Notes: a model not told the origin generated them from the sequence alone. A DNA stretch of 64,000 nt from an uncultured virus (IMG/VR IMGVR_UViG_3300020411_003822) (IMGVR_UViG_3300020411_003822); one strand, 5' to 3'. Positions 28,617-63,943 are shown, numbered from the stretch's first letter. Made by a program: numbers and translations.

Positions 28617-28618
28617 AC

Positions 28619-30356: not shown

Positions 30357-30404
30357 ACATACAACAACTGTTAGATTAAATAGAATGGATCAATCCGACT
30401 AAAC

Positions 30405-33525: not shown

Positions 33526-33527
33526 AC

Positions 33528-33965: not shown

Positions 33966-33967
33966 AC

Positions 33968-46270: not shown

Positions 46271-47932
46271 ACATGGACGAAGAATTCACCGTATGGAGAA
46301 TCCAAGAAATCGTCTTGGCCGAGGAATGCCCTCTCCAAGACAGATTTGACAGAGAAGAATTGTGGTGTGACGATGTGGACTACACGGGTGGTCGCCTCAA
46401 CTTCATCGCTTTTGTGAGCAATTGGCCTCACCCCGATATTTCGGCAACAGAGGCGAAGCAATTGAAGGAGTACCTCGAACGAAAAGTGATTAACGAAGCA
46501 GAACGCCAATATCCCAATGGCGCAAGAGCGCGAATTTACTTGCCCAGTGGCCCCATAGAGGCGTATTGGCCGGATGAAGACTGAACATGAAAACTGAATT
46601 GGCATTAACATTCAACACTGGAATGTTTAGGCGGGACGAGCCGTTGGTGATCTATTCATCCAAACATCTCGGCCCAGTTACAGCAGAATCAACAATAGCA
46701 AGAATGATTCACCCCAAAGGGAGAGGCATTGGCTTTGCAAAGGCAAAGGATACAGGAATGATTGGAACCTTTCCTTTGGAACGACTGGATTATGCAGTAA
46801 AAATGACAATATCTCCCGAAATGTGGAACTTACTATCGGAGATAGACACGATTCTTGACAGTATTCAATCGCACAATGAAGCTTATCGAATAATTGGATT
46901 GCTTGATGGCGAAGGGTTACTGGAAAAACACAAGGAAATCAAAACAATCAGGGATAAAGCCAAAAAAATAGGTAGAGATATTAACCTTGATTACGGAGAC
47001 TGAACACATGTCCGAAGAAAAGACAAGTTTTCGTGAATGGATTGAGAGATTCTTGGAGAAAGTACCTGACGATGCGCTGATAAACTGCTGCATCGAGATG
47101 TCGTATTCTCAAGGAGCAAAAGGCGGTAAAGAGATCATGGTGACTGGTCTGCATCCTAACGATGCAGATTGGCAAAAGAAATACCCAAGCAGTAAAGATT
47201 GTTGGGGTGGAAACCCAGTAAATCGCGCCAAAGACTGAACATGTCGAGCGAAATTGACGACAGTGAGGATGGATTCGTTTGCCCACAATGCGATAAACGA
47301 TTCCAAGAGGGAGAATGTATGCCTGCAGTTGCTTTAGCAGCGCAAATCGGAAGAGAAGAAGATGTTGTATTATGTTCAATAAGATGTCTGGTAGGCTTCT
47401 TGAAAGAGCACGCAACTAACTGAACATTGAAAAGGAGAAGCATCTTGGAGAGAATTGGGCCGGAGTTTCTGATTGCTTTCATATCTTCTTCAACTTCAGG
47501 TGGTGGTTGGAAGTTTGGGGTAAACTTCCTCCTCTCCGGTCCACCTTAACTTAACATGGCAGACGACTTGCTGAAGGGAGTAGACATGGATTCTACATGG
47601 AGTTGGTACGGGGACTTGGAAGAGGTCAATCTCTTTACATACAGAGGGGAATTTCATAATGACAATTCCATTATGGTAAAAATAGTAAACGAAGAGGGGG
47701 ACAAATTGAAGGTCCGTTTTCACATTCAAGAGGTAGAGATCCTTGAAGTAATCAAGGCAGCTACCGAGAAAGACGAACTACTTGAATTACTGGACAACAT
47801 TTACGGCCTCCTTGAAGGAATGGCAGATGGAGCGGAAGACACAGAGGATTACGATGATAGCGAGAGAATCTTTGCAAATGCAAGAGATCGTGCGCATCGT
47901 GCCTGGGCTATCGCAAAGAACCTAAACTGAAC

Positions 47933-49201
47933 ATGAAGTTTTACACAGATGAAGGCAAATGCCTTAGGTGTGGGAAGAAACTTTCAGATCAAACATCAAT
48001 TGATTCTATGGTGGGTCCTGAGTGCAAAGGTTTGCACTGGAACCCCTTGAATACAGTAAAAACCGTTGTGAGCATATCGAAGTATTTGGATCCGAGAGGA
48101 ACCGAAGGCGATTCGGAGAGGAATCCAAGAGAATTTATGGAAGAAATGGAAGCAGACATTTTGTTTGCTTGCAAAAGCAAGGAATACACTTGGGAATCCG
48201 ATAATTACACAGGAAAACACGATGTAACGGAATTTGCTTTCGATGTCGAAGTATGGGTAAGAGCAGAGAAATTCTGCTCAATAATAACCTCAGGTTATGA
48301 AGATAAATTCAAGGAAGCAGTGGAATTGTCTCCAATCATCAAGATTGGGAATTTGAACAGTTGCCAAAAGCAACCGAACTTCGAAAATGTGGAAACACAG
48401 ATAAGGTTCGAATGGGTGAAATTCTACGGAATCGTATTTCCTGACGGAAGTATGAGAAATGGAATAATTGAAGCATTGGATCTGAATGAACAGGAATTTG
48501 CAATGATACCGAACAGTTTTGATGACTGGAATGAAAAGATATTGTCTCCATTCAAAGTGAATGTTAAGAGAATTTTATTTCAAGAGGAATTCATTGTAAA
48601 AATGAAAACTATGAAATTCATCTACTGTGATCCAATCGTAAATGCGATTACAGGCGATGATTTAGATTACAAGGATAATTACCCAGCGTGCCATGAATGG
48701 GAGTTTAGTGATAATCCGAGACTCGTAGAAGATTACTGGGCCGAACAAGTAGATTACAATCACGATGTCTATTGTGATGCAGTATTGTGCATAAACCATC
48801 TCCATTTCCTTCCTAATCTGAAATACAGAAAAAAGGAAATAGACGAATACGATGATGGACTGACAAAATGCATCCTTCGACAACTGGAGAAATGCTACTC
48901 GGAATACATGGAAGGTATGCCATACTGGTATGACGACAGTGATAACTTTGAATATTTCAATCAAAGAGTTTGTTGGTATGCCGCCAGGACAATCGCAAAG
49001 AACATCGGGCAATGTATTGGAAACATCACCCAAAATATGCCAGAAAAACCAGAGATAGAATTGACGAATGCCTTTGAAGGATTGAAAGATAAGGACAAGT
49101 ATTGGTCTTGGGTAAAAAAACTGCGGGAATACGATTACTACGGATTCGGCAGCGCGGATACAGATTTCCTCAATGCAATAAAAGAGGGAGCAGAACTGAA
49201 C
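47933..49201 (+). CDS. DUF6011-type zinc finger fused to an unknown domain; no stop before the motif at 49195
   Basis: CLRCGKKLSD..S....GPEC. Confidence 0.65.
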
Positions 49202-49546
49202 ATGTCAGGAACACCGTGGGGTAATCCCAGTGGAGTAGAAGCAGTTGCACCTGGAATAGACTGGGTGATAACAGGAAGGCACGGAGGATTGCGTGTTTCA
49301 AACGCAATCGCCAAAGAGGCAGGTATCAATCGATTACTTGCGTCAATGGGAGGAATGGGTGTCGGTTTAGCAATATACGAACGCCAGCATTGGTGGTTCG
49401 AAGAAGACTGTGCGTGGAGCATAGCAGTACTATTGCTACCGCAGCATTTCTCCGAAGAAAGCCAACAGGCAGCCGAACAATGCGCAGAACTTTATTTCCC
49501 TGAAGCATTTGCATTAGTCAAAGAACACAGGGAGGGTATTGAATGA
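49202..49546 (+). CDS. DUF7007-like protein
   Basis: TPWG...APGI..V.T..HGG...WFEEDCAW; starts at an in-frame internal motif. Confidence 0.65.
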   Translation: MSGTPWGNPSGVEAVAPGIDWVITGRHGGLRVSNAIAKEAGINRLLASMGGMGVGLAIYERQHWWFEEDCAWSIAVLLLPQHFSEESQQAAEQCAELYFPEAFALVKEHREGIE

Positions 49547-49676
49547 GCGAGAAAATTAAGGTAACAAGAGAAGAATGGCTTGAATATACAAGAATCATTC
49601 AAAAACAACTCAGTAGAAAACGATACGAGCAAACATTTCGTTATGCTTGGAACGGAATAGAACTGATAGACTGAAC

Positions 49677-49931
49677 ATGACTCTTATTGACGCAATCAAG
49701 CGAGAGATTACTGTAAGGCATACATGCAGAAGGTGCAACCGCCCTTTGACGGACAAAGAGTCAATTCAAAGAGGTATAGGCCCCATCTGTTTTGCAAAGG
49801 AACAAAAAGTTCGCCCATACCACTACTATGATTACAGGTTGGGCAAAACTGAACATGAGTCTCATAGAAGCGATTATGCGAGAGATGGAAGGAGGCGAAC
49901 AAGTTGTTTGTCAAAGATGGAGGAACCATAG
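49677..49931 (+). CDS. DUF6011 zinc-finger protein
   Basis: CRRCNRPLTDKESIQRGIGPIC. Confidence 0.75.
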   Translation: MTLIDAIKREITVRHTCRRCNRPLTDKESIQRGIGPICFAKEQKVRPYHYYDYRLGKTEHESHRSDYARDGRRRTSCLSKMEEP

Positions 49932-50736
49932 ATCTGAATACAGACCAAGCGGAGAAGCTATTGACATTGAAGGAGGCGGATACCACGCGAAATTAATTCC
50001 TAAAGCAACAGCAGCAGAATTTGTTCGAACACACCACTACAGCGGTTCATATGTAGCCGCAAGAGTAAATGTGGGGATGATTCGTGATAATGCTGAAGGT
50101 GGACAGGAACTTTGTGGAGTAGCCGGATACTCTGTACCAATGTCTCAAGCAGTGATTCCAAAATGGTTGAACTGTGAACCAGAAAACGGTATTGATTTAG
50201 GAAGGTTTGTTCTTCTCGATGATGTACCTGCAAATGGTGAAACATGGTTTCTAAAACAATCATTCAAACTACTCAAAGAGGATAAACCAGAAATTCAAGC
50301 CGTCATGGCTACATCTGATCCTTTGGTGAGAGTGAATTATTTGACAGGAGAAATTGTAATGCCAGGGCATGTGGGAACAATATACCAAGCCCACAATGGC
50401 GCATATCTTGGAAGAACAACGAAAAAAACAGTCATCAGTGGAAACGATGGCAATGTGATAACTGGTAGAACACTAAGCAAAGTTAGAAACCAAGAAAGCG
50501 GTAAGGATTATTCGTATCAGAAACTACTTGCTGCAGGCGCAACAGAAAAACAATCCTCCGAACAATGGAGAGATTATGTGAGAAGAGCAACAAGAGAACT
50601 GAATAGAATTCAGCACCCAGGCAACCATGTGTATGCTTGGCCTCTTGGTGAAAACAAAAAGGAAAACAGAGAAATCCGACAAACAATCGGAGCGATTAAT
50701 CCATCGGATTATCCGAAGGAAGTCGAAGTTTACTGA
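49855..50736 (+). CDS. Mom-family adenine-modification (GNAT-like) enzyme
   Basis: FVRTHHYSG, LGRFVLLDDVPANGETWF, SDP, GHVGTIYQAHN. Confidence 0.8.
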   Translation: MSLIEAIMREMEGGEQVVCQRWRNHRSEYRPSGEAIDIEGGGYHAKLIPKATAAEFVRTHHYSGSYVAARVNVGMIRDNAEGGQELCGVAGYSVPMSQAVIPKWLNCEPENGIDLGRFVLLDDVPANGETWFLKQSFKLLKEDKPEIQAVMATSDPLVRVNYLTGEIVMPGHVGTIYQAHNGAYLGRTTKKTVISGNDGNVITGRTLSKVRNQESGKDYSYQKLLAAGATEKQSSEQWRDYVRRATRELNRIQHPGNHVYAWPLGENKKENREIRQTIGAINPSDYPKEVEVY

Positions 50737-51328
50737 ACATGAGAAACCCTACTACGAAGGTGTTTGGAGTGTGCGATTTCTGCGGTTATGATGCAGAAGC
50801 AGCAGTAAAGTACCAAATGAAGCAAAACGGGGAAGAACTCTCAGAAGAGGAATACGAGAAAGAAGTCGCATTCTATCTCTTCGAGAGTCACGCTGACTTC
50901 TGCCCAGAGATGGCAAATATGGTCGAAGAATACGATAAGGAGAATACTGAACATGCCACGAATAAGTGAGTTGAAGCATCTCCTAAGAGAGATGACAGGT
51001 TTTATTGGCGCTACAATTCTAAATGTAGCAATAGGAGACGGAGGAGCTTTGTCCTTGTATGTTGTAGACAAAGAAGGGCAAGGCAATTGGTTAGACATCA
51101 ATAGTGATCCAGAAGGAAATGGTCCTGGCTGGATTCACATAGAAGAAGACGGAGGAGACCACGGTTTCAATCCAGGAACAAAAGAGGAATTGAAAAAAAA
51201 GATTATCAAAGAATACGAAGGGATTGATTTCGCTGACAGGATTCATCCAGCCTTCCAAGAAGAGGGTAAGGACGAAGATTACAGCGTAAGAGGAAAACTT
51301 GATGGATTTGGTAATCGAATTACTGAAC

Positions 51329-51574
51329 ATGGCGAGAACCGCAAGGATCAAGCAGAAGATAATTCAGTGCCTAACTGAATACGGAGAGGCAAGCAGCCAA
51401 GAGGTGTATGCTTATGTCAAAACATCAATGAGGCACGGGGCAACAATGAATCAAATCAGTAACCTCTTGTCAAAAGACAAGAGAATTGAAAAAACTGGCA
51501 TGACAAGTGTAGGAAGAGTCACAATGGAATCATACCAAGTAGCAACTTGGAAATTGAAGGAAGACAATAACTGA
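51329..51574 (+). CDS. DUF3860-like winged-helix protein
   Basis: MRHGATMNQISNLLSKDKRIEKTG. Confidence 0.75.
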   Translation: MARTARIKQKIIQCLTEYGEASSQEVYAYVKTSMRHGATMNQISNLLSKDKRIEKTGMTSVGRVTMESYQVATWKLKEDNN

Positions 51575-51895
51575 ACATGCGCAAGTACAAGGTAGCGTTG
51601 TCTCAAACAATTTATTGGGACATTGAAGTGGAAGCTGAAGATAAAGAGTCAGCAATAGAATTAGCAAAAGAAGAGGCATCGTTAGATGCCGCCAGCGATG
51701 GTGGTAAATTGAGAGTAGATGATGTCCAATGATAATTGAACTCACAAGAAGGGACGCAGAGGTTTTGATTTCTTTAGTGCAACAAGCACGGGAAAAACAA
51801 GCAAATCAACCAACAGTTGCACCAGAGTTGAGAACAATGGCATTGGAATACTATGATGACCTCTACGGAAGATTGCGAAAACAAGTAAACTGAAC

Positions 51896-53035
51896 ATGCA
51901 CGAAGGAATACAATTTCTATCGTTGGGAGGGGGTGTAGATTCAACTGCACTCCTGGCTATGCATCTCTGTCGAGATGAAGCCGCAGAAAAACTCGGAATC
52001 AGTCGAGAAGAACTGGATAGCAAACTACCCAATTTCGAATGGGTTGTATTTGCAGACCCAGGCTCAGAGTGGCAATCCACTTACGACAACATCGAGTACG
52101 CTAAAATGATCTGCGAAAAGGTAGGGCTCAATTTCAAAATTGTAGTTTACATGCAGAGATATTACCGCCACATTGATACCAATGAGCGTATCAAAGATTG
52201 GCAATACAGAGCATTGGAAAAAGAAGACAAGGAGAATTGGAAAGTTTCAATCGAAAGACAAACAATATTTGAATGGCTAACAGAGTTAAAACAAGATGGC
52301 TCAAAAGGAAGCCTACCTATGTTGCCTGGTTCTTCTCATCAATGCAGTGACCGATTCAAAGGCGGCGTACAGAGAAAATGGGCTGACAAAGAGTTCGGAA
52401 AAGATACAAACAAAGTATGGTCGTTAGGAATCGAAGCGAATGAAGATAAACGACACAAAAGATTCACTATGAATCGAGGAGACAGCAAATTTCCTCAGCA
52501 CCATTTCGTGTATCCACTAAAGGATCTCGAAATGACAAGAGAAGATTGCAAAGAAATGTTACGCCACCTACAATGGGATTATCGGGGAGACGGCAGCGAG
52601 GTTGAAAAGTCAAGTTGCATGTGGTGCCCGTGGCTATCCGATTGGGAAGTTGTAAGACTGGTAGAAGATGGCGGACAAGGATTAGAAGAAGCGAAAGAAA
52701 TTGAAAGATTGTTCTATGCTTCTTTCGACAAACATGCAAGATGGCATGAATTGGGTAAACCAATGGTCCCTTCTGGCGTAAGAGCCGCACCTGGGACTCA
52801 CGCAAAGCCATTCCAAACAGGAGTTTGCACACATGCAGAGTGCAGTAAGTACGCACCAGGAAACAAAACTGGCAAAGGAACACTGATTCAACTAAGGTAT
52901 GTAGAAGACGAAAATGGAAAACTTGTGAGAAAAAGCACAGGAAAGAGGCTTACAATGGAAGAACATGAAGAAGCGATTATCAATGGTCGCTTTGCAGAAA
53001 CTGAACACAAGGGGGGCAGGGAGTCATCGTCCTGA
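51896..53035 (+). CDS. PP-loop adenine nucleotide alpha-hydrolase (PAPS reductase-like)
   Basis: SLGGGVDS, FADPG.E, YPL, KSSCMWCP. Confidence 0.75.
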   Translation: MHEGIQFLSLGGGVDSTALLAMHLCRDEAAEKLGISREELDSKLPNFEWVVFADPGSEWQSTYDNIEYAKMICEKVGLNFKIVVYMQRYYRHIDTNERIKDWQYRALEKEDKENWKVSIERQTIFEWLTELKQDGSKGSLPMLPGSSHQCSDRFKGGVQRKWADKEFGKDTNKVWSLGIEANEDKRHKRFTMNRGDSKFPQHHFVYPLKDLEMTREDCKEMLRHLQWDYRGDGSEVEKSSCMWCPWLSDWEVVRLVEDGGQGLEEAKEIERLFYASFDKHARWHELGKPMVPSGVRAAPGTHAKPFQTGVCTHAECSKYAPGNKTGKGTLIQLRYVEDENGKLVRKSTGKRLTMEEHEEAIINGRFAETEHKGGRESSS

Positions 53036-53067
53036 GGCATCCCATCCCTACGGATACCCTGCTCCCC
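53011..53067 (+). ncRNA. Small motif-flanked stem-loop RNA candidate
   Basis: GGGGGCAGGG...CCCTGCTCCCC between ACTGAAC and CCTAAAC. Confidence 0.4.
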
Positions 53068-55497
53068 ACCTAAACATGACTGAAACTGAACCAGTTGAGG
53101 TAAAAGTTCTACCCTATGAAGGATATGAACTGACGGAATGGGAATTGCGTAGCAATCCCGACAAAAATGGATTGAGAAAGATAGAAGGAATTGATTGCAA
53201 GACATCGTGGCCGACAGAAGTTGAAGTCGGACAGCACCTTGTAAGAAATAATCTCACCTTAGAAGAAGTGAAAAAAGTAGAACGAGGACCAATTACAACA
53301 TGGATCTTGGGAGAATACATGCACAACGACAAAATTGTACAGTACAATGTCGAGAACCACAACAAACAATGGGTAATCATACTTGAAGAACAAACTGAAT
53401 TAGTCCAAGCGGAAATCAAACTTCATCTCAAAATGCGAGAAATTGCGCATGAGCATGTGAAGAAAAAAATCGAAGAAGCTGAGGCTAAGGGGGAACCTTT
53501 GTTCAAACCTACACGCTTCCGACACAAGGAAACAGGAGAGATTGTAACTCAAATTAACTTGATGCAGATCAAGAATTACGAGAAACTCGATGACTGAACA
53601 TGACTGGACAGGAACCAGAACAGGAAAAGGTTGGAGTTTGTGGATACTGCGATTTTGTGCAGGGATACCACCCTCACAACATGTTGCGTATTGACGAGAA
53701 CCCACGATTAGCATATGACTTTTGCAAGTCGTGCGGAGGGCATCATTTGCAACCAACATCACAATGCAAGGATTTCATACCGAGAAATCCAGATGTGTAT
53801 GAGGGTTCGATTTGGTTTTGCCAGGGCTGCGGTTCTGGAACTGAGTTCGAAATCACAATGAAAGAGGCCTTGAAAAAAGCAGATTACTGAACATGGACAC
53901 ATATTGCAGTTTATGTGGGGAACCTTTTGACATTGGAGAATTTTCATACATGGAAAGATTCGATGCAGAAGAGGCATCTAAGATATTCCGCCTATACGGT
54001 TGCGGGATCTTATGGAAAATGGAAATGAATCCAGAATTGTCTTTGGAAGAGGCAAAGGAATTCAAATGTAGCCCAAGAAATGTTGAGATGAAACACCTTG
54101 CAGATATGGCAGGCGCATTAGGCGACATCATGGGCGATGATATTGACGGATTAGCATCATTGATGGATGGATACTGAAATGAGCAAAATCAAGGAAGAAG
54201 CGATTGACTTACGATCATCCTTGCACAAAGTAAGGGAAATTTGCAAGCAAAATGCAAAAATGATAAATGAAATCCCAAGCAAATGGACTCGTGCACAAAG
54301 CGCGAAAGAATTTACGGGATTAGCCGATTACATCGGATGCTTACTCATAAAGGACGATAAGGGAAGAGAAAAGGCATTATTGCGCTGGGCGAAAAAAAAC
54401 AAATGAATACTGAACATGGCTCACTATTATTGCAAAAGATGCAAAAGACAAATGAAAATATCTTGGCAAGCACCCACTACCAAAATATGTGCAAGGTGCT
54501 GCAGAGAAGAAAGAGAGAGTACAGGAAAACCGATTCCTGGTCCTAAAGGACTGAACATGAAAGAAAAGGCCGATTGGTCCATTTGCGTTGATTGGGAAGT
54601 CGATGAAAATGATTGGATAACAGAGGAAAGAACAGAAAACTTGGCGAAACTATCCGTCTGTTTACTGTTCAACCATCGCTTTCCGAAGTGGATTTGGAAG
54701 GCACTTTGGTATAATCTGCCCTGGAAAGCAGCAGAAGCCACAGAGAAATACATCAAAGAACATTCAGATATTTTGGATGAAAAAGGATGGCCAGAAGCGA
54801 ATGAATACATCAAGGAATTGAGAAAAACAATAAAGCAAACTGAACATGAGTTGGCGATGCCGATGTGATGAAGATGAATTGCCAATCCTACGGGGATTGG
54901 TAGATGAGATCCTCTGCAAAGCGGAGGAAATGGAACAAAGCACGAACCGCTTTCTAAGAGAGGTTGGTGCAGAATTGAAGAAAACAATTTGGGAATCTAA
55001 CAATGAACCCAAAAACGATGGTTCACCTATCTGGTGGCCGAGACACGAAACGATTAACGGCAACATCTGCTTAATCGAAGAGATTCTTGATGAGAACCAA
55101 GAACCAATTAAGATGCGTGTTAAACACGAATACTGAACATGAGTATCTGCGGACATTGCAATACGGAAATTACATCTGAACCTATGAGCAAAGGTGTATA
55201 TGGAGGGGACTGGATTTCCAGTTGCCCTATTTGCGAATGGTGTAGTGAAAGCGAAGAAGATTCGAAGATTAAACAGGGATTAACCCTTGAGGAGCTTGTC
55301 GAACATAAAGCCAAATTGAATAGCGTATATGCGAAATTACACGATCTTGTATTTCGAGCAAGAAGTGCAAAAGGAGCATATAGGCAACATTCGACCAGCC
55401 ATACTCCCAACAAATCATTTGTGAACAGAACTATGTCAGAAGAAATAATGGTGGAACTTGGTGAAGCCATGAATCAACTTTTGGACAAAACTGAACA

Positions 55498-55587
55498 CCC
55501 TGCTGTGCAAGCGCACGGCAGGGCTATTTTGCGGCCTCGATGAAAACGGGGTCGCCTATTTTTTTTGGCCCTCATGAAAACGGGGTC
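55498..55587 (+). terminator. Array-end hairpin plus tandem T-tract/GAAAA elements
   Basis: CCCTGCTGTGC-AAGC-GCACGGCAGGG, then CTATTTT..GCC(C)TC.ATGAAAACGGGGTC twice. Confidence 0.65.
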
Positions 55588-55750
55588 ATTCTATGATTCG
55601 ACCACACTTTCTGCAACTACGAGGGTGGCATCCAGAGTGCCGAGGGCAGGGGTTTTCACATTTACATTCATCGGACATGCTCGCAGAATATCCGCTCGAC
55701 TTCATAACGGTGTCGCTACGATTAAACGGATGAAGCACTTGCCCTTTACC

Positions 55751-56050
55751 ATGACAACAGTTGGCGGTATGAATTGGAATGAATTTCGCAAGCAGCACAA
55801 AGGAGAGGACAAAGAGAGAATCTCCGAACTATGGAAACTATACAAAGAAGGAGAATACGACCCCGAAGCTTCAACAAACATCGACCCAAATCACGGACAC
55901 GATCTGGACTACATCGCAGAAGTAGAAGCAGAGATGGCCGAAGAAGCCGAAGAAAATGAAGTCAAGAGAGAACCTGAGCAACAGGAATACTTGAACGAGT
56001 TAAACAACGAAGAGAAAAGAACCGGTTTGAAATCAATCACTCACTGGTGA
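55751..56050 (+). CDS. Hypothetical protein
   Basis: ATG 21 nt after TTAAACGG; WNEFRKQHKG..ISELWKLYK. Confidence 0.6.
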   Translation: MTTVGGMNWNEFRKQHKGEDKERISELWKLYKEGEYDPEASTNIDPNHGHDLDYIAEVEAEMAEEAEENEVKREPEQQEYLNELNNEEKRTGLKSITHW

Positions 56051-59042
56051 AGTTATTTTTCATCGCTTCCATTCTCTCAAGGTAATCCTTGAACTCATGG
56101 TCTATCCATGTGATCGTGTCATAATTAGCACCATATCTGACTACTGTGCCAGGTTCCAGTTCACTGATTGGTATATCCGGCAATCTTTCATTCATCAATT
56201 TCCGCTCCTCTTTCGTTCTTTTCGGAGCCTTAATCAATTTCTTGTTGTAAACAGACCTTAACTGACTCTCAAACTTCTTCTCTTCTTTGGCAGTGGGTGC
56301 ACTTGTGCCCTCAGAGAGATTGTATTCCTCCAATAATGAATCCAATGATTGAATTGCATACTTCCAATCATCGATTAATTCTATGAATGAATCCTGAGCC
56401 AATAACTCTTCCTTCATTTCAGCCCAAACTCGAAGATGTTGTTGTTGCTCAATATCCTCTTTCCTTCCGCCTGCAGAAAGAGTTTCAAGAATAGAATCCG
56501 CTTCACCAGTCCAAGATTTACCCGTAACCTCAACGGCAAAATCATTCACTGCTGTATAAGCATCTTTCAATTGCGCTTTCAAAGCGAGAAGCTGTTTAGT
56601 CGGTACAGATGCATATTTGCCTTCTCCAGCCTCGCCAAGAGTTCCGTGTTTGTCCACTTGGCCAGCGATCTGACTTGAAAGTGGATGATTCATATCATCA
56701 ATCAATCCCATCGGTGCTGCACTAAGCAAAACTTGTGTCTGTCTCTCATAGGCCTGAGCAAGCACACTTTGGTAATGCCTGGGAACACCGTCAATAATCT
56801 CAGTTCGAGCACCTTTGGTCGCAGCCCTACCTGTTACGGAAGCAGAACCAGAGCGGGCGTTTGACATGACAATATCACTACACAAGGAATCAGCGAGTAA
56901 CAAGTAATGCTTGAAATGAACAGGAACAGTTTTCCCTCCAGAAAGTATCGTTTTCCCATTACCTTGAGCGTTGAACATATTGTGGGCAAGTTGCGCTCTT
57001 GCCGCTTCAATCCCAAGAACAAGTTCAACCTGCCTTGAATCACTTGTTGTTGTACGATTAAAATCAATTTTCAATTTCTGAGTCCCAGTCAAGTCATCGT
57101 TGTAATCATAATTCGATGCAGTTATGAAATGACCCTTGAAATTATTCATTCGACCATCATTGATGTCTTTGTAAGAAAGCAAAATGTAGTATTCATCCAT
57201 TATTGGATCGTTAATGATTCGACCTCCATGCATAAAGGCAAGCGGATAATCAGAGTTTTGACCTTTACGACTTGCACCTGGATAAGTCAAAAAGGAAATA
57301 TCATCAGGATAAATTGTGTATTCTCCATTCACCTTGTAATCAAGACTACCTATGTGCTTCGCAATATCGACTTGACCCATGTGATCTTCTGCTCTGTAAT
57401 CAGCAACCATTCCAATTTCCGCTTCTTCGTATTTTCCATCTTCAACATCTTTTGCCTCAATGGTTTGGTCCCATTCCTGATAGGGTTTGCCATAATTGAA
57501 TTGAACCACATTAGCGTTGATATTGTACCATCCGTGATGACAATTTCCACAACGCCTTAATTTCCGACCAAGTTCAGCAATCTCGAAATCATATCTATCT
57601 GATGTAGACATATCAATTTCAACCAAACCAACCGATTCATCTTGTAGCCTCTCTAATTCTTCATCAGTCAATCCTTCTGGGTTATCCTTGACTCCCGTAA
57701 TATCAAAGGAACTACCAGCAGTAGCTTCAGCGAGCAAATTCGAAACAACAGTCGCATCATATTCCGTCTGAGGCCATCTTGAGTCCCATTCTGGATCCTC
57801 CACCTTTTCAGTACCTTTCCTTCCAGCCTTGTGTACCAATTTAGCAAGAGTAACAGGGTGTTTACAGTTTCCACACACCTCCAAACGCATTAAAATCTGC
57901 ATCAAACTCATTTCAAGACGGAAGGTGAGGTATGGAAAAGTAAGTACAATGCCTGTAATTTTTTCATCACCTATCTCTACCGTCACGCCATTTCGGTCCG
58001 ACATCTTACAATTCTTCCAAATAAAGTGAAGCGGATTATCTGCATCCCCTACTGTTCTAAAGGAGCCATCAGATGTTCTCAGTTGCCGCCTAATGATGGT
58101 CCATAATTGTGCTACATCATTCAAATCGTTCTTCTTCAACTGGTTATACTCGAATGAGTTTCGATCAGACAATGCTAATTCAAGTTCAGATTCAGATAAG
58201 TTGCTATTCAACATTCTTTCATTCTTCAAGTAAATGAAATATGATTGAGACTTTGCCGCCTCAAGTTGTGCTTTGAAGGCTAAATTCTGCAATCTCTTAT
58301 GCTCATCAAGGACAGCCTGGTATTCTGGCAAAGGCTTTCCAGTCACCTCAACCATTTCGTCTAAAACTTCACTGTACTCTTGTTTCGTCTCATAACGCTC
58401 TTCCTCAGGAAATGACCTAACCTTCTCATACGCCTTTTCAAGCACCCCTGAAAGCATCAATTGAATATGAGCAGGTTCATTCTTTACAATACCGCAATGG
58501 TCGGACAAAACAGTTCTTTTCAAGCCCTTAGCAAGTTTTTCCGCCTTGTTCTTGTCGAATCTAATCTCCGGAGGTAACGCTAAAGCAACAAGTGCGTTCT
58601 TGTTCGGTGTCTTCCCTACCTCGATATTGAGAAGTTCTAATTCATCCTTGTTTGTAAGCACACCAGCATAGTGGAATGTTCTCATTCCTCCCTGATATGC
58701 AGGTTCAGAAATTGAAGTCGCAGCAATTGGGCCAATAGGCGTCATTGGATCTATCCTTGCTTCTAAAACAGATTTCTGTAAACCATCCAACACCTTCTTC
58801 ACAAAATCATTGGGAACATCACTCAATTTCCTGTATTTTTCTGTAAGAGGTTCCTTTGTATCGGCATCCACGGCACCCATCTTAGTGGCAACATCAAGGA
58901 GCATCAAGTCATTAACAGCATAATGTGTATTGTCCAGGGAATCCCTCAAAAGATTCTGCCAGTCCAGTACGAGGTCCGCCGCCATGAAGTCGCTAAGCAG
59001 TTCATCCGTATGAAGAAAGCGACAGTTGAAATTACGATTCAA
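56037..59042 (-). CDS. Divergent DNA-directed RNA polymerase subunit A''/Rpo1C-like, with large insertions
   Basis: PIGPIAATSISEPAYQGGMRTFHYAGV (trigger-loop region), LGIEAAR, KHYLLLAD. Confidence 0.85.
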   Translation of the reverse strand: MNRNFNCRFLHTDELLSDFMAADLVLDWQNLLRDSLDNTHYAVNDLMLLDVATKMGAVDADTKEPLTEKYRKLSDVPNDFVKKVLDGLQKSVLEARIDPMTPIGPIAATSISEPAYQGGMRTFHYAGVLTNKDELELLNIEVGKTPNKNALVALALPPEIRFDKNKAEKLAKGLKRTVLSDHCGIVKNEPAHIQLMLSGVLEKAYEKVRSFPEEERYETKQEYSEVLDEMVEVTGKPLPEYQAVLDEHKRLQNLAFKAQLEAAKSQSYFIYLKNERMLNSNLSESELELALSDRNSFEYNQLKKNDLNDVAQLWTIIRRQLRTSDGSFRTVGDADNPLHFIWKNCKMSDRNGVTVEIGDEKITGIVLTFPYLTFRLEMSLMQILMRLEVCGNCKHPVTLAKLVHKAGRKGTEKVEDPEWDSRWPQTEYDATVVSNLLAEATAGSSFDITGVKDNPEGLTDEELERLQDESVGLVEIDMSTSDRYDFEIAELGRKLRRCGNCHHGWYNINANVVQFNYGKPYQEWDQTIEAKDVEDGKYEEAEIGMVADYRAEDHMGQVDIAKHIGSLDYKVNGEYTIYPDDISFLTYPGASRKGQNSDYPLAFMHGGRIINDPIMDEYYILLSYKDINDGRMNNFKGHFITASNYDYNDDLTGTQKLKIDFNRTTTSDSRQVELVLGIEAARAQLAHNMFNAQGNGKTILSGGKTVPVHFKHYLLLADSLCSDIVMSNARSGSASVTGRAATKGARTEIIDGVPRHYQSVLAQAYERQTQVLLSAAPMGLIDDMNHPLSSQIAGQVDKHGTLGEAGEGKYASVPTKQLLALKAQLKDAYTAVNDFAVEVTGKSWTGEADSILETLSAGGRKEDIEQQQHLRVWAEMKEELLAQDSFIELIDDWKYAIQSLDSLLEEYNLSEGTSAPTAKEEKKFESQLRSVYNKKLIKAPKRTKEERKLMNERLPDIPISELEPGTVVRYGANYDTITWIDHEFKDYLERMEAMKNNFTSE

Positions 59043-59697
59043 TCATTTCTCGAAGACGCTTAGCCTTGACTGGGCCGCCACAAACCTTCACAAACGACTG
59101 CCAAGAACCATCCTTCTCAGGGTCTTTCCAAGATTCATATTCTCGTTGTACTTCCTCAGGAACTTCCATTATCATTTCCGCTGGAATATCTGGAGCGGAA
59201 CCATTTGATTCAATCACGGGAGTCATGTCCTCCTCGACAGGGATTTGTTCAACCTCTTGCTCTTCCTCTTTCTCTTCATCTTCTCTCGAAGAAATCTCGT
59301 TGAATAATTCAGGATCACTGTATAACACATTAGTGTATGAAGGCTCATCAGATTTGATTCTCTCTTCCATTTCGTCTAATTTCCTGATAACAAGCCCTGC
59401 GAATTGTTGGTTAGCTTGTAGCATAGCCTCCGCATTCAAATGATGCAGTTTCCTCAAATTGTCAATATGTCCTGGAAGCCAAACAGGTTCCGCCAAAATC
59501 TGCTCAAATAGCGACATGCGCTTATCCATAGCATCCAACCTTCTCACGATTGCCTCAAAACCCAACAGTATTTTCTTGGTATCGATTTCCGTAGTTTCTG
59601 TTCCCTGCATGGTATCTTGTGGAACATCAGAGTTTGCATCTTGAGGGATTTCTGGAACAAAGCCAGGTCGAAACGAAGAAGCCCAGTCATCTGACAT
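59032..59697 (-). CDS. Acidic coiled-coil hypothetical protein
   Basis: ORF; TTCAAACGG 21 nt upstream of ATG 59697. Confidence 0.7.
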   Translation of the reverse strand: MSDDWASSFRPGFVPEIPQDANSDVPQDTMQGTETTEIDTKKILLGFEAIVRRLDAMDKRMSLFEQILAEPVWLPGHIDNLRKLHHLNAEAMLQANQQFAGLVIRKLDEMEERIKSDEPSYTNVLYSDPELFNEISSREDEEKEEEQEVEQIPVEEDMTPVIESNGSAPDIPAEMIMEVPEEVQREYESWKDPEKDGSWQSFVKVCGGPVKAKRLREMIES

Positions 59698-59714
59698 GAA
59701 CAAAGCGATAACTC

Positions 59715-60212
59715 TCAGCCGTTTGAATGTGTGGGAGAAAGCATACTTGCAATTCTCGCCAGCCGATCTGCATCGGTATTCTCTTCACGGGGCAAATATT
59801 TGAAATCAATTCGCAGCACATTTGAAGTGAAATTGTTAATCAAGCCATTTCTAAGATACTGTACATAATTGTGCAATTCTTGTAATCGTGGCTCCTTGAC
59901 TTTGTATTCACCGTTAATTTGCCTGATAACAAGTTGAGAATCGCTGTAAATGATAACTTCCATTAGACCAACCACATCTAAAGGACCTCTTGTGACGGGG
60001 CCTCCAAGCCCTGTCTGCAAATACTTCAGCGCACCAATGACTGCATGATACTCTGCCTCATTATTCGTGGACTTAGGGGGGAGAGGTACTAAAAATCGAG
60101 CAGTGGGCCTCCATTCATTGAGATTCGGGCCAAATGCCTGCTCAACATGTACGCCAGAACCACTGCCTCGACCAACAAAATTAGATCCATCACAAAAAAT
60201 CTTCACTTTCAT
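59715..60212 (-). CDS. rnhA: Ribonuclease HI
   Basis: FCDGS, TNNEAEY, SDSQLV, PREENTDADRLA. Confidence 0.9.
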   Translation of the reverse strand: MKVKIFCDGSNFVGRGSGSGVHVEQAFGPNLNEWRPTARFLVPLPPKSTNNEAEYHAVIGALKYLQTGLGGPVTRGPLDVVGLMEVIIYSDSQLVIRQINGEYKVKEPRLQELHNYVQYLRNGLINNFTSNVLRIDFKYLPREENTDADRLARIASMLSPTHSNG

Positions 60213-60958
60213 TCACAATCACACTCCGAACCACAACTCATTGGCTCTCTTCTATCAATTCGTTTGAAACAATGACTGCACATCAATACGCCTTGACCTA
60301 ACACCGGCCAAGAAATGCCCCCTGGCATGTATTTCTCCAAAACATCATCGATTTCCTGTCCAAATTGAATAACATCTCTCCGACTCAATCGAGTAAAGGG
60401 TGCTTTTGCAGTTACTTGCGATAACGGATGAGTAAAACAATCCTCCAGTGGCCCACTTCCTTGCTGAATAATGCGCCTCATCGAAGCAATCCATCTCTTG
60501 CCCGACATTCTCAAACTCATTCTGTGCACGGGGTGAACAAGAAGATTGTCGCCAAGCCCCGCATTATTTGAAACAACCAGTGCTACTGCATTTGAGGCAT
60601 TGGGTGCACGAATGTCTATCTCTAATTGAGAATCAATATCAACAACATGCCAATCATATTCGTCACGATCTAACTCAAGTTCGAACGGCACCGGAGAATC
60701 AGACCAACTCCAACCTGTATGTTGCAGAACTTCTGTTGGAAGTTGAGTAGAGTAATGGGAACCTTCCGAATCAATAGCAACAATTCTGAAATACTTGTGT
60801 CCAGTTCTTTCTTCAATAAACAACCTGGATTGCTTTATTTCACAGTTTCCTTTACCTCTAATTTTAATTTTATGTCCTCTTTGCGGTCCTTCGAAAACAT
60901 TGTCTTGGTTGAACATAACAGGAGCGGGGAACCCTCTGCCTCTTGAAGCCTTCGTCAT
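60209..60958 (-). CDS. Hypothetical protein with C-terminal Cys cluster
   Basis: 249-aa ORF overlapping both neighbours. Confidence 0.65.
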   Translation of the reverse strand: MTKASRGRGFPAPVMFNQDNVFEGPQRGHKIKIRGKGNCEIKQSRLFIEERTGHKYFRIVAIDSEGSHYSTQLPTEVLQHTGWSWSDSPVPFELELDRDEYDWHVVDIDSQLEIDIRAPNASNAVALVVSNNAGLGDNLLVHPVHRMSLRMSGKRWIASMRRIIQQGSGPLEDCFTHPLSQVTAKAPFTRLSRRDVIQFGQEIDDVLEKYMPGGISWPVLGQGVLMCSHCFKRIDRREPMSCGSECDCE

Positions 60959-61467
60959 ATTTTCTTCCCCCCGAACAAAGCGCCAAAGATCATGGTAATT
61001 CCCTCAGCAACTTTGCCTAATGAAAGACCGGCCTGCTTTGATTCCCAAGTACCATGCAAAGCGTAATTCGCATAGTGCTCGCAGTTCCGTGTCAATAAGT
61101 TGTAATCATTGCGATGCAACATTTCTTTCGCTCTATCAAGAACAGGTATAGGCTCATCTGGAACTTCAACGATTTCAATATCTCTGCCTTCGGAAAAACG
61201 AACATAATCAGTCAAACCAACCCTGGTGCCAGTATGGCTATCGGGAGCATCAACAGATGGACTCCAAACACGATTTAGCAACCTTGACGACCAAGACTGC
61301 TCCGAAATCTCCCCCTCATAGACGCCCCCAAACTGATAGATTAGTTGCAATCTGGTATCAGGGTGATAATACTCAGAAGCTACACCATAATGGAAAAAAC
61401 TGCCTCTCTGAAACCTTCTTCGAAGAATTGCACCAGGAGGAAAGGGCATTTCGGGCTCTTCGTCCAT
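60955..61467 (-). CDS. LRAT / NlpC-P60 permuted-domain protein
   Basis: HYGV...YNLLTRNCEHYA. Confidence 0.8.
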   Translation of the reverse strand: MDEEPEMPFPPGAILRRRFQRGSFFHYGVASEYYHPDTRLQLIYQFGGVYEGEISEQSWSSRLLNRVWSPSVDAPDSHTGTRVGLTDYVRFSEGRDIEIVEVPDEPIPVLDRAKEMLHRNDYNLLTRNCEHYANYALHGTWESKQAGLSLGKVAEGITMIFGALFGGKKI

Positions 61468-61497
61468 GAGTGTCCTAACACTGTCTGCCTCATAGGG

Positions 61498-61896
61498 TTA
61501 ATCCCAATCAGTTATTGGCTGGTGTCGAGAAGCCACTAAAGCAAAAACTCCTACAGTCTTGTATCTTCCATCTGCAGCTTTCAATACTCTACTGTTAATT
61601 CGTTTGAAATCAGGGTGGCGAAACACACCGCCTACAATTCGAGGATCACAATCTGCTGGCAACGGCAGTTCCGACAATACATCTTCAATAGTCACCTCTC
61701 CACTATCAGTTGCAATTCTCACAGCAACAGACCTTGCTTCCTCTATCCAAGAATAACGCAGGGGTTTTGTAGTCGAGGATAATTCAAGTTCTCGCAGTTT
61801 TTCCTTTAGTCGTGAAGATTGATCACTGGGCAATTTGAACATGCTCGTAATAACTCGCATTACTTTCTCCACATCATCTGCCTTCATTGGCTTCAC
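61498..61896 (-). CDS. Hypothetical protein
   Basis: ORF; DPRIVGGVF. Confidence 0.6.
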   Translation of the reverse strand: MKPMKADDVEKVMRVITSMFKLPSDQSSRLKEKLRELELSSTTKPLRYSWIEEARSVAVRIATDSGEVTIEDVLSELPLPADCDPRIVGGVFRHPDFKRINSRVLKAADGRYKTVGVFALVASRHQPITDWD

Positions 61897-62318
61897 TCCA
61901 TAGGCGAAATTTCGATTAACACTGAGGGCGCTTCTCCTTGAGCAACTTGAACTTTCAAAACTTGTAGGGATGATATTTGCCGGTCATCATCAGCAAGCAT
62001 ACCAGAAGCAAATAGGGCATCCATGTAATGTTTAGCAATGTTATCCACATCAGGCCCGTTAGATTTCCACTGTGCTTGCAAAGGAGTTCTTTTCCTATGC
62101 TTTGATTTAGGGCACGCAAATTTAGCGACAATACGAACTGCAATAGCCCCAGTCATGCGCTGAAAATCCTCAGGCAGTTGGCTTTTCGCCATAACTTGAA
62201 TGTGAGCCTTACTCGATTTAGATTCCGCCTTCTCATATGCGATTGGCTTACCTGAGCGCGTTGAAAATCGAGGCCTACCCTGTGCCATAGGCGGCCCTGG
62301 AATCTCAATCTTGTACAT
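61893..62318 (-). CDS. rusA: RusA-family Holliday junction resolvase
   Basis: GPPMAQGRPRF, PDVDNIAK..DAL...DDRQI. Confidence 0.88.
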   Translation of the reverse strand: MYKIEIPGPPMAQGRPRFSTRSGKPIAYEKAESKSSKAHIQVMAKSQLPEDFQRMTGAIAVRIVAKFACPKSKHRKRTPLQAQWKSNGPDVDNIAKHYMDALFASGMLADDDRQISSLQVLKVQVAQGEAPSVLIEISPME

Positions 62319-62649
62319 GCTTATCCTCCAACTGATCCAAAACAAAAGCAACCATGTCCGTCCACTTAGACCAAGAATTGACTCGCTTTAATCTCCCTAA
62401 TTCATCCCTTACTTCGAGCGGAACATCACGACAAACGATGAACCCAGTATCTTCTTTGGTCCAATCAACTTGCATTGGGGTGATTTTCTCAGAGTTCTCA
62501 AGCACCCAGTAAGCCATATCTGCCCAAGAGTTCCAACCCATCTTGCGTCTGACTACAATCAAACGGTCCTTTACATCAAAAGGAAGCCCTCTCAGAACAA
62601 TATTTCCAGTTAGAACTGGAATCAGAACCTTCGGTTCATCGTCCTCCAT
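62305..62649 (-). CDS. Tandem RHH-like repeat protein
   Basis: Two repeats of R.(L/V)P.(D/E)V.D.L......W..W.DM; start 20 nt after the promoter 13-mer. Confidence 0.6.
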   Translation of the reverse strand: MEDDEPKVLIPVLTGNIVLRGLPFDVKDRLIVVRRKMGWNSWADMAYWVLENSEKITPMQVDWTKEDTGFIVCRDVPLEVRDELGRLKRVNSWSKWTDMVAFVLDQLEDKHVQD

Positions 62650-62690
62650 GCACATGCCAAGCCTTTGAACCGTTTGAAGTTAGGGCAAGA

Positions 62691-63422
62691 CTATCCCATT
62701 AATCGGCTCAAGACCTGCTCTGTTTCATCATTCTTTGTTAGCAAATTGGAAATTAAATTATCTTGGGGTTGTTTCTGTGAATCATCCTCCCAATATTCAT
62801 TGTATTCTGGATCAGGTGTACCATAATTCGATAATAACGGCTTATCCCTATCCTCTTCTTTCCGAATATGCTTGAGATAATTTGCAACTTTATCCATATC
62901 AAGTGTGTCTATGAATTGAGATGCTTTACGAATTTCATCAGAAATGCCACGAATGTCAATGTCGTCAAAGGAATGTAATCCAGGGGCGACCTCATCTCGA
63001 ACATTTTCAAGCAAATCCCTGATTGCGGGAACATTGATTCCATCAAGTTGCGTGTGGAAAGCTTCCAATCTGTTTGCGGCTACATGAAGCGACTCAAGCA
63101 ATTCCACCATTCTCGCCTCCATGAGATCTGCTTTATCTTCAACCCGTACCGTAACAACAGAAATCAACAGGTTTGTGCCAATTGTAAACGCCAAAGCAGC
63201 AGCAAGAATGTATGTCCATGCAGTCGGATAGATGTAACTCACAACTGGAGCAGACATTACCAATAAAGCAGTAAATACGAACAATATGGACCGAATGCGC
63301 TTATCATACTCGATAGATTCTCGCATACTGACAATGTCCTGTTCTAAACCAACAGGAGATTCCCATTCCTCCTCCTCCTCCTCATATATTGGGACAAGAG
63401 AAGGAAGCGACAAATCAATCAC
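62691..63422 (-). CDS. Membrane protein with coiled coil
   Basis: Two TM segments. Confidence 0.65.
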   Translation of the reverse strand: MIDLSLPSLVPIYEEEEEEWESPVGLEQDIVSMRESIEYDKRIRSILFVFTALLVMSAPVVSYIYPTAWTYILAAALAFTIGTNLLISVVTVRVEDKADLMEARMVELLESLHVAANRLEAFHTQLDGINVPAIRDLLENVRDEVAPGLHSFDDIDIRGISDEIRKASQFIDTLDMDKVANYLKHIRKEEDRDKPLLSNYGTPDPEYNEYWEDDSQKQPQDNLISNLLTKNDETEQVLSRLMG

Positions 63423-63943
63423 TCGCCTGATGTATTCGGCTCCTCTGAATCAGGTATGCCATCATTGTCATCGTCTTGATCTACATCATCAGGGATTCCA
63501 TCACCGTCAGTGTCCTTCTTGACGCCCATCATTTGTCCAAGACTGGTTACAGGCTTTACTGCAGCGCCAACAACGGCACCTGCGGCCTTTTGTGCAACAT
63601 TCTTTGGTTTTGGCTCTTCGACCTTCAATTCTGGAGCATCCTCATCTTTTTCTTCATCACGAACCCATTCTGGAACGCCGTCTTTCAAAACAAGATGCAA
63701 AAGAAGCCATTGTTGTGCAACAGTCAGTGGCGCATCCAAAGCCTTCTCCTTGAATCCTTCGAAACGCCTATCTGTCAGCCCACCCTTAATGAAATTAACC
63801 AACCGAGCAAGGTCAGGTTCCCCAGCACCCAAATATCGCTTACAACGATTTACCCAACTGTCTCTTATCCTGATTCCTTTTGTCAAGAAACCAGGAAGCA
63901 TTGTCTTTCCAAGATCATACGCATATAACGATTCATCACCCAT
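63419..63943 (-). CDS. Hypothetical protein with a DTDGDG calcium-binding-like repeat
   Basis: DTDGDGIPDDVDQDDDNDGIPD; GGAGTG Shine-Dalgarno site. Confidence 0.65.
   Translation of the reverse strand: MGDESLYAYDLGKTMLPGFLTKGIRIRDSWVNRCKRYLGAGEPDLARLVNFIKGGLTDRRFEGFKEKALDAPLTVAQQWLLLHLVLKDGVPEWVRDEEKDEDAPELKVEEPKPKNVAQKAAGAVVGAAVKPVTSLGQMMGVKKDTDGDGIPDDVDQDDDNDGIPDSEEPNTSGE

Follow-up and report, generated by a model that had tools for sequence, protein, structure and literature searches.

What would a virus do with half of the catalytic subunit of a cellular RNA polymerase (RNAP)? The question is raised by a 64,000-nucleotide stretch of uncultured-virus DNA (IMG/VR IMGVR_UViG_3300020411_003822; hereafter the window), near one end of which lies a gene for an enlarged protein resembling archaeal Rpo1C, the A'' subunit. 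In archaea the largest RNAP subunit naturally comes as two proteins, A' and A''; the second of these supplies the trigger loop and jaw as well as part of the cleft and clamp core. The protein could belong to a polymerase of the element's own, be built into the host enzyme, block that enzyme, or act outside transcription. Homology, fold, conservation within the family, purifying selection, the absence of detectable A' and B partners and synteny are the observations from which we argue, and they point to a remodelled host polymerase rather than an autonomous one.

An initial reading of the sequence alone had placed an open reading frame (ORF) of 1001 residues at 56037..59042. The frame is indeed uninterrupted, on the minus strand, the plus-strand frame being full of stops; the length did not hold. 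The listed TTG start at 59042 lies upstream of the conserved N-terminus of the protein, and 11/11 database homologs that cover this region start opposite M20 (MAxDLVL...). We accordingly place the true start at the ATG at 58985, which gives a protein of 982 residues plus stop (56037..58985, minus strand). The features quoted in the sequence-only reading, QGGMRTFHYAG, two CGNC motifs, LGIEAAR and a long C-terminal tail, are all present in the translation. Coordinates for each part of the gene, all on the minus strand, were checked by translation and are given below.

The A''-like gene encodes a genuine, very divergent homolog of archaeal Rpo1C/A''. Pfam family PF04998 (RNA_pol_Rpb1_5) matched the protein with an E-value of 6.8e-13 and a score of 49.1 bits, against a gathering cut-off of 28.5, and the best sequence matches in the PDB were seven distinct archaeal Rpo1C/A'' chains (3.2e-13 to 3.9e-9), followed by Pol III and Pol II. 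A hidden Markov model (HMM) of cellular A'' with 389 positions aligned in two blocks. Residues 37-180 (58446..58877), the N-terminal core with the trigger-loop helices, correspond to positions 17-161 of the model, and residues 639-782 (56640..57071), the C-terminal core, to positions 257-374; residues 181-638 fall between the blocks and residues 783-982 beyond them. Judged by this alignment, both flanks of the A'' core are retained. A full-length AlphaFold2 model from an alignment of 17 sequences was of middling confidence, with a mean predicted local distance difference test (pLDDT) score of 62.5 and a predicted template modelling (pTM) score of 0.45. The RNAP fold was nonetheless recovered from it by two programs, which answers the concern that the protein might lack that fold. 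With Foldseek, 50 of the 50 rows listed were RNAP largest subunits (best 7oqy_C, 8.5e-4), and with VIA-align, an aligner independent of Foldseek, the top 9 of 50 listed rows were RNAP largest subunits, led by Sulfolobus Rpo1C 2waq_C (Z 11.2, root-mean-square deviation 3.6 Å, 238 of 367 residues aligned).

The trigger-loop core, QGGMRTFHYAGV (residues 98-109; 58659..58694), was located by translation and family alignment. Q98 and R102 to G108 are invariant in 17/17 family members, V109 is present in at least 90%, and residues Q98, M101, R102, T103, F104 and H105 fit the pattern Q...(M/L)(R/N)TFH. The hinge differs, reading YQGG in the A''-like protein and TQMT in 44 of 45 sampled cellular A'' sequences, a set that was retrieved with those motifs as search patterns and is consequently biased towards TQMT and the like. 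Seventy-one columns are near-invariant in the 45 cellular A'' sequences. Of these, 35 are kept in at least 15 of the 17 family members, including Q98, R102-V109, the preceding helix (G85, A89, S91, E94, P95) and the LGIEAAR helix, whose motif spans residues 657-663 (56997..57017). Cellular Rpo1C (TIGR02389; 2waq_C, 8cro_C) and the element protein thus have in common the N- and C-terminal core, MRTFHYAGV, the LGIEAAR helix and the fold. They differ in size, about 380-520 residues in cells against 982 here, and in setting, since cellular Rpo1C sits in an rpoH-B-A'-A'' operon (in the 25 cellular loci compared, no more than 200 nt separate A'' from the A' gene upstream of it) and the element gene does not.

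Between the two core blocks, about 95 positions of the cellular model are replaced by 458 residues (181-638; 57072..58445), a roughly fivefold expansion. This module cannot be aligned in sequence to cellular A'', and by structure some 160-190 of its residues resemble an RNAP jaw. The several hundred inserted residues with two CGNC motifs reported earlier are therefore present and conserved across the family, and the region is better described as a structurally expanded jaw than as a foreign insertion. A model of the insert only (residues 120-645; pLDDT 66.3, pTM 0.59, again middling) gave no Foldseek match at E ≤ 0.001, the best, at 0.063, being an RNAP, while with VIA-align the top seven rows were all the jaw region of RNAP largest subunits. 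The first two were Pol IV and Pol V chains (Z 8.1 and 7.0; 187 residues aligned for Pol IV 7eu0_A), a generic jaw similarity and not specific kinship, and residues 102-272 of Sulfolobus Rpo1C aligned over 161 residues with a Z of 5.9, these Z values being middling by the tool's own guidance. Pfam searches of the insert, of its four-Cys part and of the C-terminal extension returned nothing below an E-value of 0.006, and no match passed a cut-off. The idea that the insert holds a foreign domain was rejected on account of the consistent RNAP-jaw matches and the lack of a Pfam domain. On the evidence of the models, the consistency of those matches suggests that the insert is an expanded jaw.

Both cysteines of the first CGNC motif, C371 and C374 (residues 371-374; 57864..57875), are invariant in the family; in the second (residues 479-482; 57540..57551) C479 is invariant and C482 is present in at least 90% of the 17 sequences. 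The two CxxC pairs lie on predicted beta-hairpins of the insert model and together probably form one putative four-Cys metal site. The C-terminal extension that had been noted is confirmed as 200 residues (783-982; 56040..56639) added beyond the cellular A'' core and outside the HMM alignment. It is helical in the model, with a long helical hairpin at about residues 785-892 for which VIA-align found only generic coiled-coil matches (Z about 6), and six of the 12 sequences in one family alignment (A1) possess its last 110 or so residues.

Relatives of the protein are few and come from metagenomes. A word-indexed protein search returned 11 close relatives (810-983 residues, 33-92% identity), all metagenomic and none annotated beyond 'hypothetical protein'. 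A profile search of 1.84 billion cluster representatives gave 35 proteins at E ≤ 1e-30, among them about 10 full-length family members (824-967 residues, at least 278 bits) and about a dozen fragments, after which scores fell sharply to ordinary A''/Rpb1 proteins at no more than about 130 bits. No family-level match longer than 967 residues occurred among these representatives, and so no fused A'+A'' form was seen. Single-protein locus searches of genome and viral contigs gave no relatives; alignment-based searches did, recovering eight copies on metagenome contigs (L161-L168), of which five are full-length and three truncated, and a further copy (L081) on an IMG/VR contig. None of the 80 loci kept from 185,579 species genomes was family-level (best E 4e-12), and all had cellular rpo contexts.

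In a quick IQ-TREE phylogeny of 62 rows (17 element copies and 45 cellular A''; 401 columns, LG+C20) the 17 element copies formed one clade with a Shimodaira-Hasegawa-like approximate likelihood ratio test (SH-aLRT) value of 100, separated from the 45 cellular sequences by branches of 1.2 and 1.62 changes per site. The clade was not nested in Poseidoniales, a placement to which long-branch effects apply, and a tree with Poseidoniales as sister group was neither supported nor rejected (log-likelihood difference 0.006; approximately unbiased test p 0.50). By these comparisons the A''-like proteins are a small, metagenome-only family that forms its own long-branched clade. The family stands apart from the 45 cellular A'' proteins and outside the rpo operon rather than grouping within cellular Rpo1C, and tree, context and size together bear out the original description of an element-encoded, greatly expanded A'' homolog. 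Every region of the protein, expansions included, is under purifying selection: the ratio of nonsynonymous to synonymous substitution rates (dN/dS) for the whole gene was 0.077 between the copies in L168 and in G001, the IMG/VR record that holds L081, and 0.112 between L163 and L162. By region, in the two pairs with DNA, it was 0.11-0.12 for the expanded jaw, 0.026 for the C-terminal core and 0.10 for the tail.

Two observations on the cellular sequences may be recorded here. The Poseidoniales A'' proteins (L047, L049, L067, L069) are about 519 residues long owing to an N-terminal extension of about 105 residues (residues 17-121 of L047), and the A' of L069 has 1068 residues with DFDGD at residue 656; these expansions are lineage-specific to the host enzyme and unrelated to that of the element jaw. 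One record titled as a Desulfobacteria bacterium metagenome-assembled genome (L023) carries an archaeal rpoA'-rpoA'' pair that clusters with Methanophagales/ANME-1, probably as a result of binning contamination.

Does the element encode the rest of a polymerase? The sequence-only reading had proposed autonomous transcription and a search for A' and B elsewhere. HMMs for A' and B were built from 25 rpoA' and 24 rpoB genes lying just upstream of A'' in cellular loci and were run against the 1955 stop-to-stop ORFs of at least 50 residues in the window, G001 and L161-L168. Neither subunit was detected in any of these: the best E-values were 3.4 for A' and 0.48 for B, all below 5 bits, whereas the cellular A'' HMM, as control, found 10/10 element copies at 5.5e-38 to 1e-19. 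G001 had no match to PF00623 (Rpb1 catalytic domain) or PF00562 (Rpb2 domain 6), models that both hit 14/14 control genomes. The D-x-D-G-D motif was absent from G001 ORFs of at least 150 residues, and its single occurrence in the window (63514) belongs to a Ca-binding-like repeat. The A'' part is recognised with such ease that A' and B partners of the same age should have been recognisable as well, which makes an autonomous RNAP unlikely, and the proposal was not sustained.

Jumbo phages possess split, highly divergent beta/beta' RNAP enzymes, and an autonomous polymerase of this kind could have A' and B subunits too divergent to recognise or encoded outside the window. There is some room for them: many ORFs are unannotated, G001 has several unassigned proteins of 790-1068 residues, a TFB-like factor is present (see below), and a metagenome contig (L160) identical to window positions 62322..46040 is the start of a 93,127-base contig, so that the window's contig runs on for about 30.8 kb beyond window position 1. 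We still hold such an enzyme to be improbable, given the disparity between the A'' and A'/B searches, the outcome of the motif and Pfam searches, the tail-fibre match of the largest unassigned G001 ORF, and the listing of only 'RNA polymerase A' for 'magrovirus group D' in PMC5434244. The nucleocytoplasmic large DNA viruses (African swine fever virus, vaccinia) likewise encode a largest-subunit homolog, and their chains are among the structural matches of the A''-like protein. These viruses encode the whole catalytic core, with both double-psi beta-barrel subunits, whereas nothing beyond the A'' half could be detected here. The remark in the sequence-only reading that multisubunit RNAPs are unusual in archaeal viruses is fair. 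Reviews describe archaeal viruses as having no RNA polymerase genes and relying entirely on the enzyme of the host (PMC5569661).

If the polymerase is not the element's own, what is the A'' half for? Given the archaeal split into A' and A'', an element can supply the A'' half alone, and we see about an even chance that the A''-like protein takes the place of its host counterpart, so that the polymerase becomes a host-virus hybrid. The protein would assemble with A', B and the small subunits of the host, and the resulting enzyme would stay catalytically competent, the trigger-loop core being intact. The hybrid would gain a roughly fivefold larger downstream-DNA jaw with a four-Cys element and a 200-residue helical C-terminal extension. 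Acting alongside the co-conserved TFB-like factor, it would turn transcription towards the genome of the element or adapt it to that genome. A constrained stand-alone A'' paralog that has an invariant trigger loop, keeps both flanks and has no detectable A' or B partner suggests a protein that works inside a mostly-host polymerase.

A model of the predicted contact agrees with this proposal. Poseidoniales-clade A' (L069, residues 600-1068, with a 22-row alignment) was modelled with residues 1-185 of the element protein. The interface score ipSAE was 0.73 in 3/3 runs, whereas the best of three controls scored 0.00; in the calibration of the tool the corresponding mark was reached by 116/157 solved complexes and by 2/215 mismatched pairs. 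At least 72% of contacts are common to the runs, the partner pLDDT is at least 61, and the modelled interface joins the bridge-helix region of A' (995-1064) to element residues 75-100. As archaeal RNAPs are already among the solved structures, a pass in this test means that the canonical interface is still compatible and is not proof of binding.

The same interface would serve a different end if the protein were a decoy or poison subunit that competes with host A'' to yield an inactive or blocked polymerase, sequesters host subunits (shut-off), or occupies the polymerase against a host inhibitor. This is the main rival, and we judge it unlikely. It too needs the A' interface that the complex model supports; the family has lost half of the positions that are near-invariant in cells, and its hinge has changed from TQMT to YQGG; and the very large jaw could block the downstream channel. 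A pure decoy, however, needs no catalytic residues, and Q98 and R102 to G108 are invariant in 17/17 sequences at a divergence of 27-29% identity. An element without its own RNAP moreover needs an active host polymerase for its roughly 100 genes.

Several points weigh against a hybrid polymerase and are gathered here. The NCBIfam equivalog model for rpoA2, TIGR02389, is not reached (75.5 bits against a cut-off of 420.65). Thirty-six of the 71 near-invariant cellular columns are not kept, 27 being variable, 7 replaced by another conserved residue and 2 gapped. With YQGG in place of TQMT at the hinge, catalysis could be altered or lost. The search for partners in the window covered 64 kb, and about 30.8 kb of its contig lies outside; the sole complete genome examined, G001, has an A''-like copy only 27% identical to that of the window. 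The A' in the complex model is a stand-in from the Poseidoniales clade, and the AlphaFold2 monomer models are middling (pLDDT 62.5 and 66.3). Marine archaea as hosts are deduced from the literature and gene content. Assembly into the host enzyme, catalytic activity and the role of the expanded jaw are likewise inferred. Recombinant archaeal RNAPs can be reconstituted from separate subunits, so the hybrid hypothesis is directly testable in vitro.

The second transcription gene of the window encodes a TFB/TFIIB-like protein of 324 residues (1708..2682, minus strand) with a two-cyclin-repeat core and a non-canonical four-Cys N-terminus. The cyclin core scored 25.3 bits in Pfam (cut-off 23.6), residues 99-290 matched human TFIIB at 4e-4, and the score against the NCBIfam TFIIB subfamily model was 28.6 bits against 384. 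There is no canonical zinc ribbon at the N-terminus, and the four cysteines, with their non-canonical spacing, are conserved in a homolog in G001 (L245:16130-17080, plus strand). This homolog is 25% identical over the full length (BLASTP 2e-20) and syntenic, each of the two genes adjoining a homolog of window gene 1213-1734. The TFB gene named in the sequence-only reading is therefore real as a TFB-like gene with a TFIIB-like cyclin core, and as both it and the A''-like gene occur in the window and in G001, the two genes travel together.

A third element of the early proposal, that the polymerase might read ACTNAAC as a promoter, was not upheld. The motif is strongly enriched in the window, with 115 matches against 28.9 ± 5.9 expected and 0/100 shuffles reaching 115. 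Of these, 108 are on the plus strand, 87 of them directly before ATG, and 7 on the minus strand, where none precedes a start. ACTNAAC stands at the in-frame start of 68 of the 93 plus-strand ORFs between 3800 and 56040, and the ACTGAAC-ATG sites have A-rich positions at -8 to -10. The minus-strand block in which the A''-like gene lies lacks the motif. Its placement against the start codons of tightly packed genes does not fit a promoter of the type formed by a TATA box and a TFB-recognition element (TATA/BRE); it fits a translation-initiation or re-initiation signal or an RNA-processing signal, one that looks peculiar to the long gene array of this element. ACTNAAC is not enriched in G001, so it is uncoupled from the A''-like and TFB-like genes.

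The genes around the A''-like gene form a conserved cassette on the minus strand. Directly upstream is an acidic protein of 223 residues (59032..59703; 50 D+E against 23 K+R), and the rest of the cassette extends over 59715..63943. In the order of transcription it comprises proteins of 174, 243 and 116 residues, RusA (61893-62351), a 132-residue protein, an LRAT/NlpC-like protein (60955-61467), a 249-residue protein, RNase H (59715-60212), the 223-residue protein and, last, the A''-like protein. This order is kept in G001 and in seven related loci that reach upstream. The 223-residue gene directly precedes the A''-like gene in G001 and in 7/7 metagenome loci that reach upstream; its product has the conserved motifs EDWAS.F.P, MTNV and W..FVKV.GGP.KAK, matched no family in Pfam, PHROGs or NCBIfam, had no usable match in the ESM Atlas and gave a model with a pTM of 0.23. 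It is a candidate partner or assembly factor of the A''-like protein. A convergent gene of 161 residues on the plus strand (55565..56050), whose end overlaps the end of the A''-like gene, is conserved in L162, L163, L164, L168 and G001. Scans of the other cassette and flanking proteins at E ≤ 0.1 found nothing related to transcription.

This setting bears on a further explanation, in which the A'' scaffold of trigger-loop helices and jaw has been exapted for work outside RNAP, for instance as a DNA-binding or replication factor acting with the RusA/RNase H cassette and the 223-residue neighbour. The gene is always found in this recombination/replication-type cassette, never beside transcription genes, and is tightly linked to an acidic protein of no known fold. 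We attach little probability to exaptation, because the protein keeps exactly those residues that matter only inside the RNAP active centre, retains both core flanks that contact A', and has an expanded jaw that still matches RNAP jaws best.

The window as a whole is, by its gene content, a mobile element or virus. Its genes occupy the plus strand between about 3.9 and 56 kb and the minus strand over the remaining part, 56 to 64 kb, a layout matched by the GC skew. The 111 ORFs scanned include none with a housekeeping function. They include at least seven DNA methyltransferases, Mom-like, 3'-phosphoadenosine 5'-phosphosulfate (PAPS)-reductase-like, DUF932, DUF6876, DUF7007 and SprT-like genes, three DUF3860 paralogs, RusA, RNase H, the LRAT/NlpC-like gene and the TFIIB-repeat protein. 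A tRNA scan found two tRNA genes, tRNA-Lys(UUU) at 8069-8143 and tRNA-Arg(UCU) at 34890-34964, both in the plus-strand array. The DNA-modification genes lie at 21688-34885, 49792-50736 and 51896-53035, several being common to the window and G001, and the methyltransferases are of the N6_N4, N6, Dam+DUF4357 and PHROG MTase families. The DUF3860 paralogs (27201-27473, 38596-38889 and 51299-51574) also belong to the plus-strand array, and all match G001 80787-81014.

That the A''-like gene is instead a normal chromosomal gene of some uncultured archaeon, or a product of faulty assembly, is barely credible. In favour of this is that the sequence is known from metagenomes only. Against it stand the absence of housekeeping genes among the 111 window ORFs and a context of methyltransferases, Mom, RusA, RNase H and plasmid or phage DUFs; a relative in a complete genome with tail-fibre-like and terminase-like genes; the lack of any family-level locus among the 80 kept from species genomes; and the recurrence of the stretch in runs of several independent studies. 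Stretch 55500-60300 was found in part in 20 of 24 listed public runs. In eight of them, from six studies of marine or seawater metagenomes, the fraction of sampled words present was at least 0.22, and this DNA may itself derive from one. Across the stretch, 30/30 bins are covered at 90-99% identity by a DNA run from another study. Two RNA-library runs from one sample contain the same two contigs of 166 and 153 nt, 100% identical to 57772-57934 and 60149-60298, which may be DNA carry-over; the rest of the stretch had no RNA cover in those two runs, and three other RNA runs contained next to none of the sampled words.

The most complete view of a related element comes from G001, the record in which the further copy L081 lies. 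It comprises 128,784 bases with direct terminal repeats and a CheckV completeness of 100. Its A''-like copy is 27% identical to that of the window and matches PF04998 at 3.3e-19, and it shares 25 of the 111 window ORFs at E ≤ 1e-5; the cassette, the PAPS-reductase-like gene and several methyltransferases are among them. G001 further encodes an archaeal-type group II chaperonin/thermosome (Cpn60_TCP1, 1.6e-101), PCNA, a serine recombinase, RusA and glycosyltransferases. Its largest otherwise unassigned ORF, of 2989 residues, has tail-fibre PHROG matches at 4.9e-97, and there are an fn3 tail-like protein and a fragment-length match to a terminase large subunit (1.1e-12). On this gene content G001 looks like a tailed virus. 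Pfam found no PolB (PF00136) and no HK97 capsid (PF05065) in it, a result that does not prove the genes absent. In the 64-kb window, neither Pfam nor PHROGs detected a capsid, portal or terminase gene; the earlier suggestion to look for capsid and terminase genes thus failed for the window and succeeded in part in the relative, with terminase-like and tail-fibre-like genes and no PF05065. The giant ORFs of G001 (L240:10015-18984, L241:9896-16351 and others) include, besides the 2989-residue protein, one of 2151 residues that combines guanylate kinase, DUF7831 and DUF5754.

These elements have a possible counterpart in the literature. The passages of Philosof et al. (2017; PMC5434244) available to us connect a 'group D' to the magroviruses of Marine Group II archaea, define it by a DNA polymerase and a thermosome, and give its gene content as including a resolvase and an archaeal-type 'DNA-dependent RNA polymerase A', the RNAP gene receiving one sentence, in which it is not described as an A'' half alone, as enlarged or as lacking partner subunits; no closed genome or morphogenetic block was known, and the nature of the group was left undetermined. 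In the accessible text of PMC10160649 (Xu et al. 2023) and PMC11706807, group D lacks a major capsid protein, and the former describes it as enriched in the cellular fraction and maybe plasmid-like; no mention of its RNA polymerase gene was found in those portions of either paper. A 2026 survey of archaeal viral genomes (PMC13465236) mentions RNA polymerase only as the RNA-dependent enzyme. In the literature searched, of which some papers were available in part, we found no analysis of an archaeal-virus RNAP subunit beyond the sentence in PMC5434244; supplements, outside the search, might list the gene.

As far as those passages describe group D, it and the window are both marine, carry a resolvase and an archaeal-type RNAP A, and have no recognisable capsid gene. 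The group D DNA polymerase and thermosome are not within the 64-kb window, so its membership of magrovirus group D is, on gene content, only consistent. G001 has a thermosome, RusA, a serine recombinase and the A''-like gene, without a Pfam PolB, and has tail-fibre-like and terminase-like genes as well. A complete relative with direct terminal repeats and such genes argues that at least part of the group D assemblage consists of true viruses. What is new here relative to the printed mention of 2017 is the architecture, the family, the lack of partners and the hybrid-enzyme implication of the gene.

The DNA-modification genes invite a more specific and less probable version of the hybrid polymerase, which we put forward tentatively: a chimeric host-virus RNAP with its own A'' half and a virus-specific TFB paralog, perhaps tuned to modified viral DNA or evading host factors. 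The jaw is where downstream duplex DNA enters, and the element carries at least seven methyltransferases and Mom- and PAPS-reductase-like genes, hence the suggestion of modified DNA. Alternatively the jaw may allow escape from host factors that act through the jaw and the secondary channel.

Plants offer a cellular precedent for a hybrid of this sort. Pol IV and Pol V are specialised polymerases in which a paralogous largest subunit (NRPD1, NRPE1) is swapped onto a shared core. The principle is the same as that proposed here, a paralog of the catalytic subunit joined to otherwise shared subunits to give new properties; the plant paralogs, in contrast, are cellular and whole subunits, whereas here only the A'' half is concerned and it is encoded by a mobile element or virus. 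Among viral strategies, the proposed outcome, a host polymerase redirected to viral genes, is like that of phage sigma factors and appropriators and of archaeal virus regulators (reviewed in PMC5569661). All of those are accessory or dissociable factors; in the hybrid a core catalytic half-subunit would be replaced.

An element with a single remodelled catalytic half-subunit and a TFB-like factor, and with no other core subunits detected, represents an intermediate strategy not described in the literature searched. If the A''-like protein does assemble with host subunits, it would be a natural RNAP-engineering experiment in which hinge and jaw have been altered, and a novel way for a virus to take over its host, one that the A'/A'' split of archaea permits. 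It would also be, as far as our searches show, the first virus to replace a core catalytic half-subunit of a cellular multisubunit RNAP.

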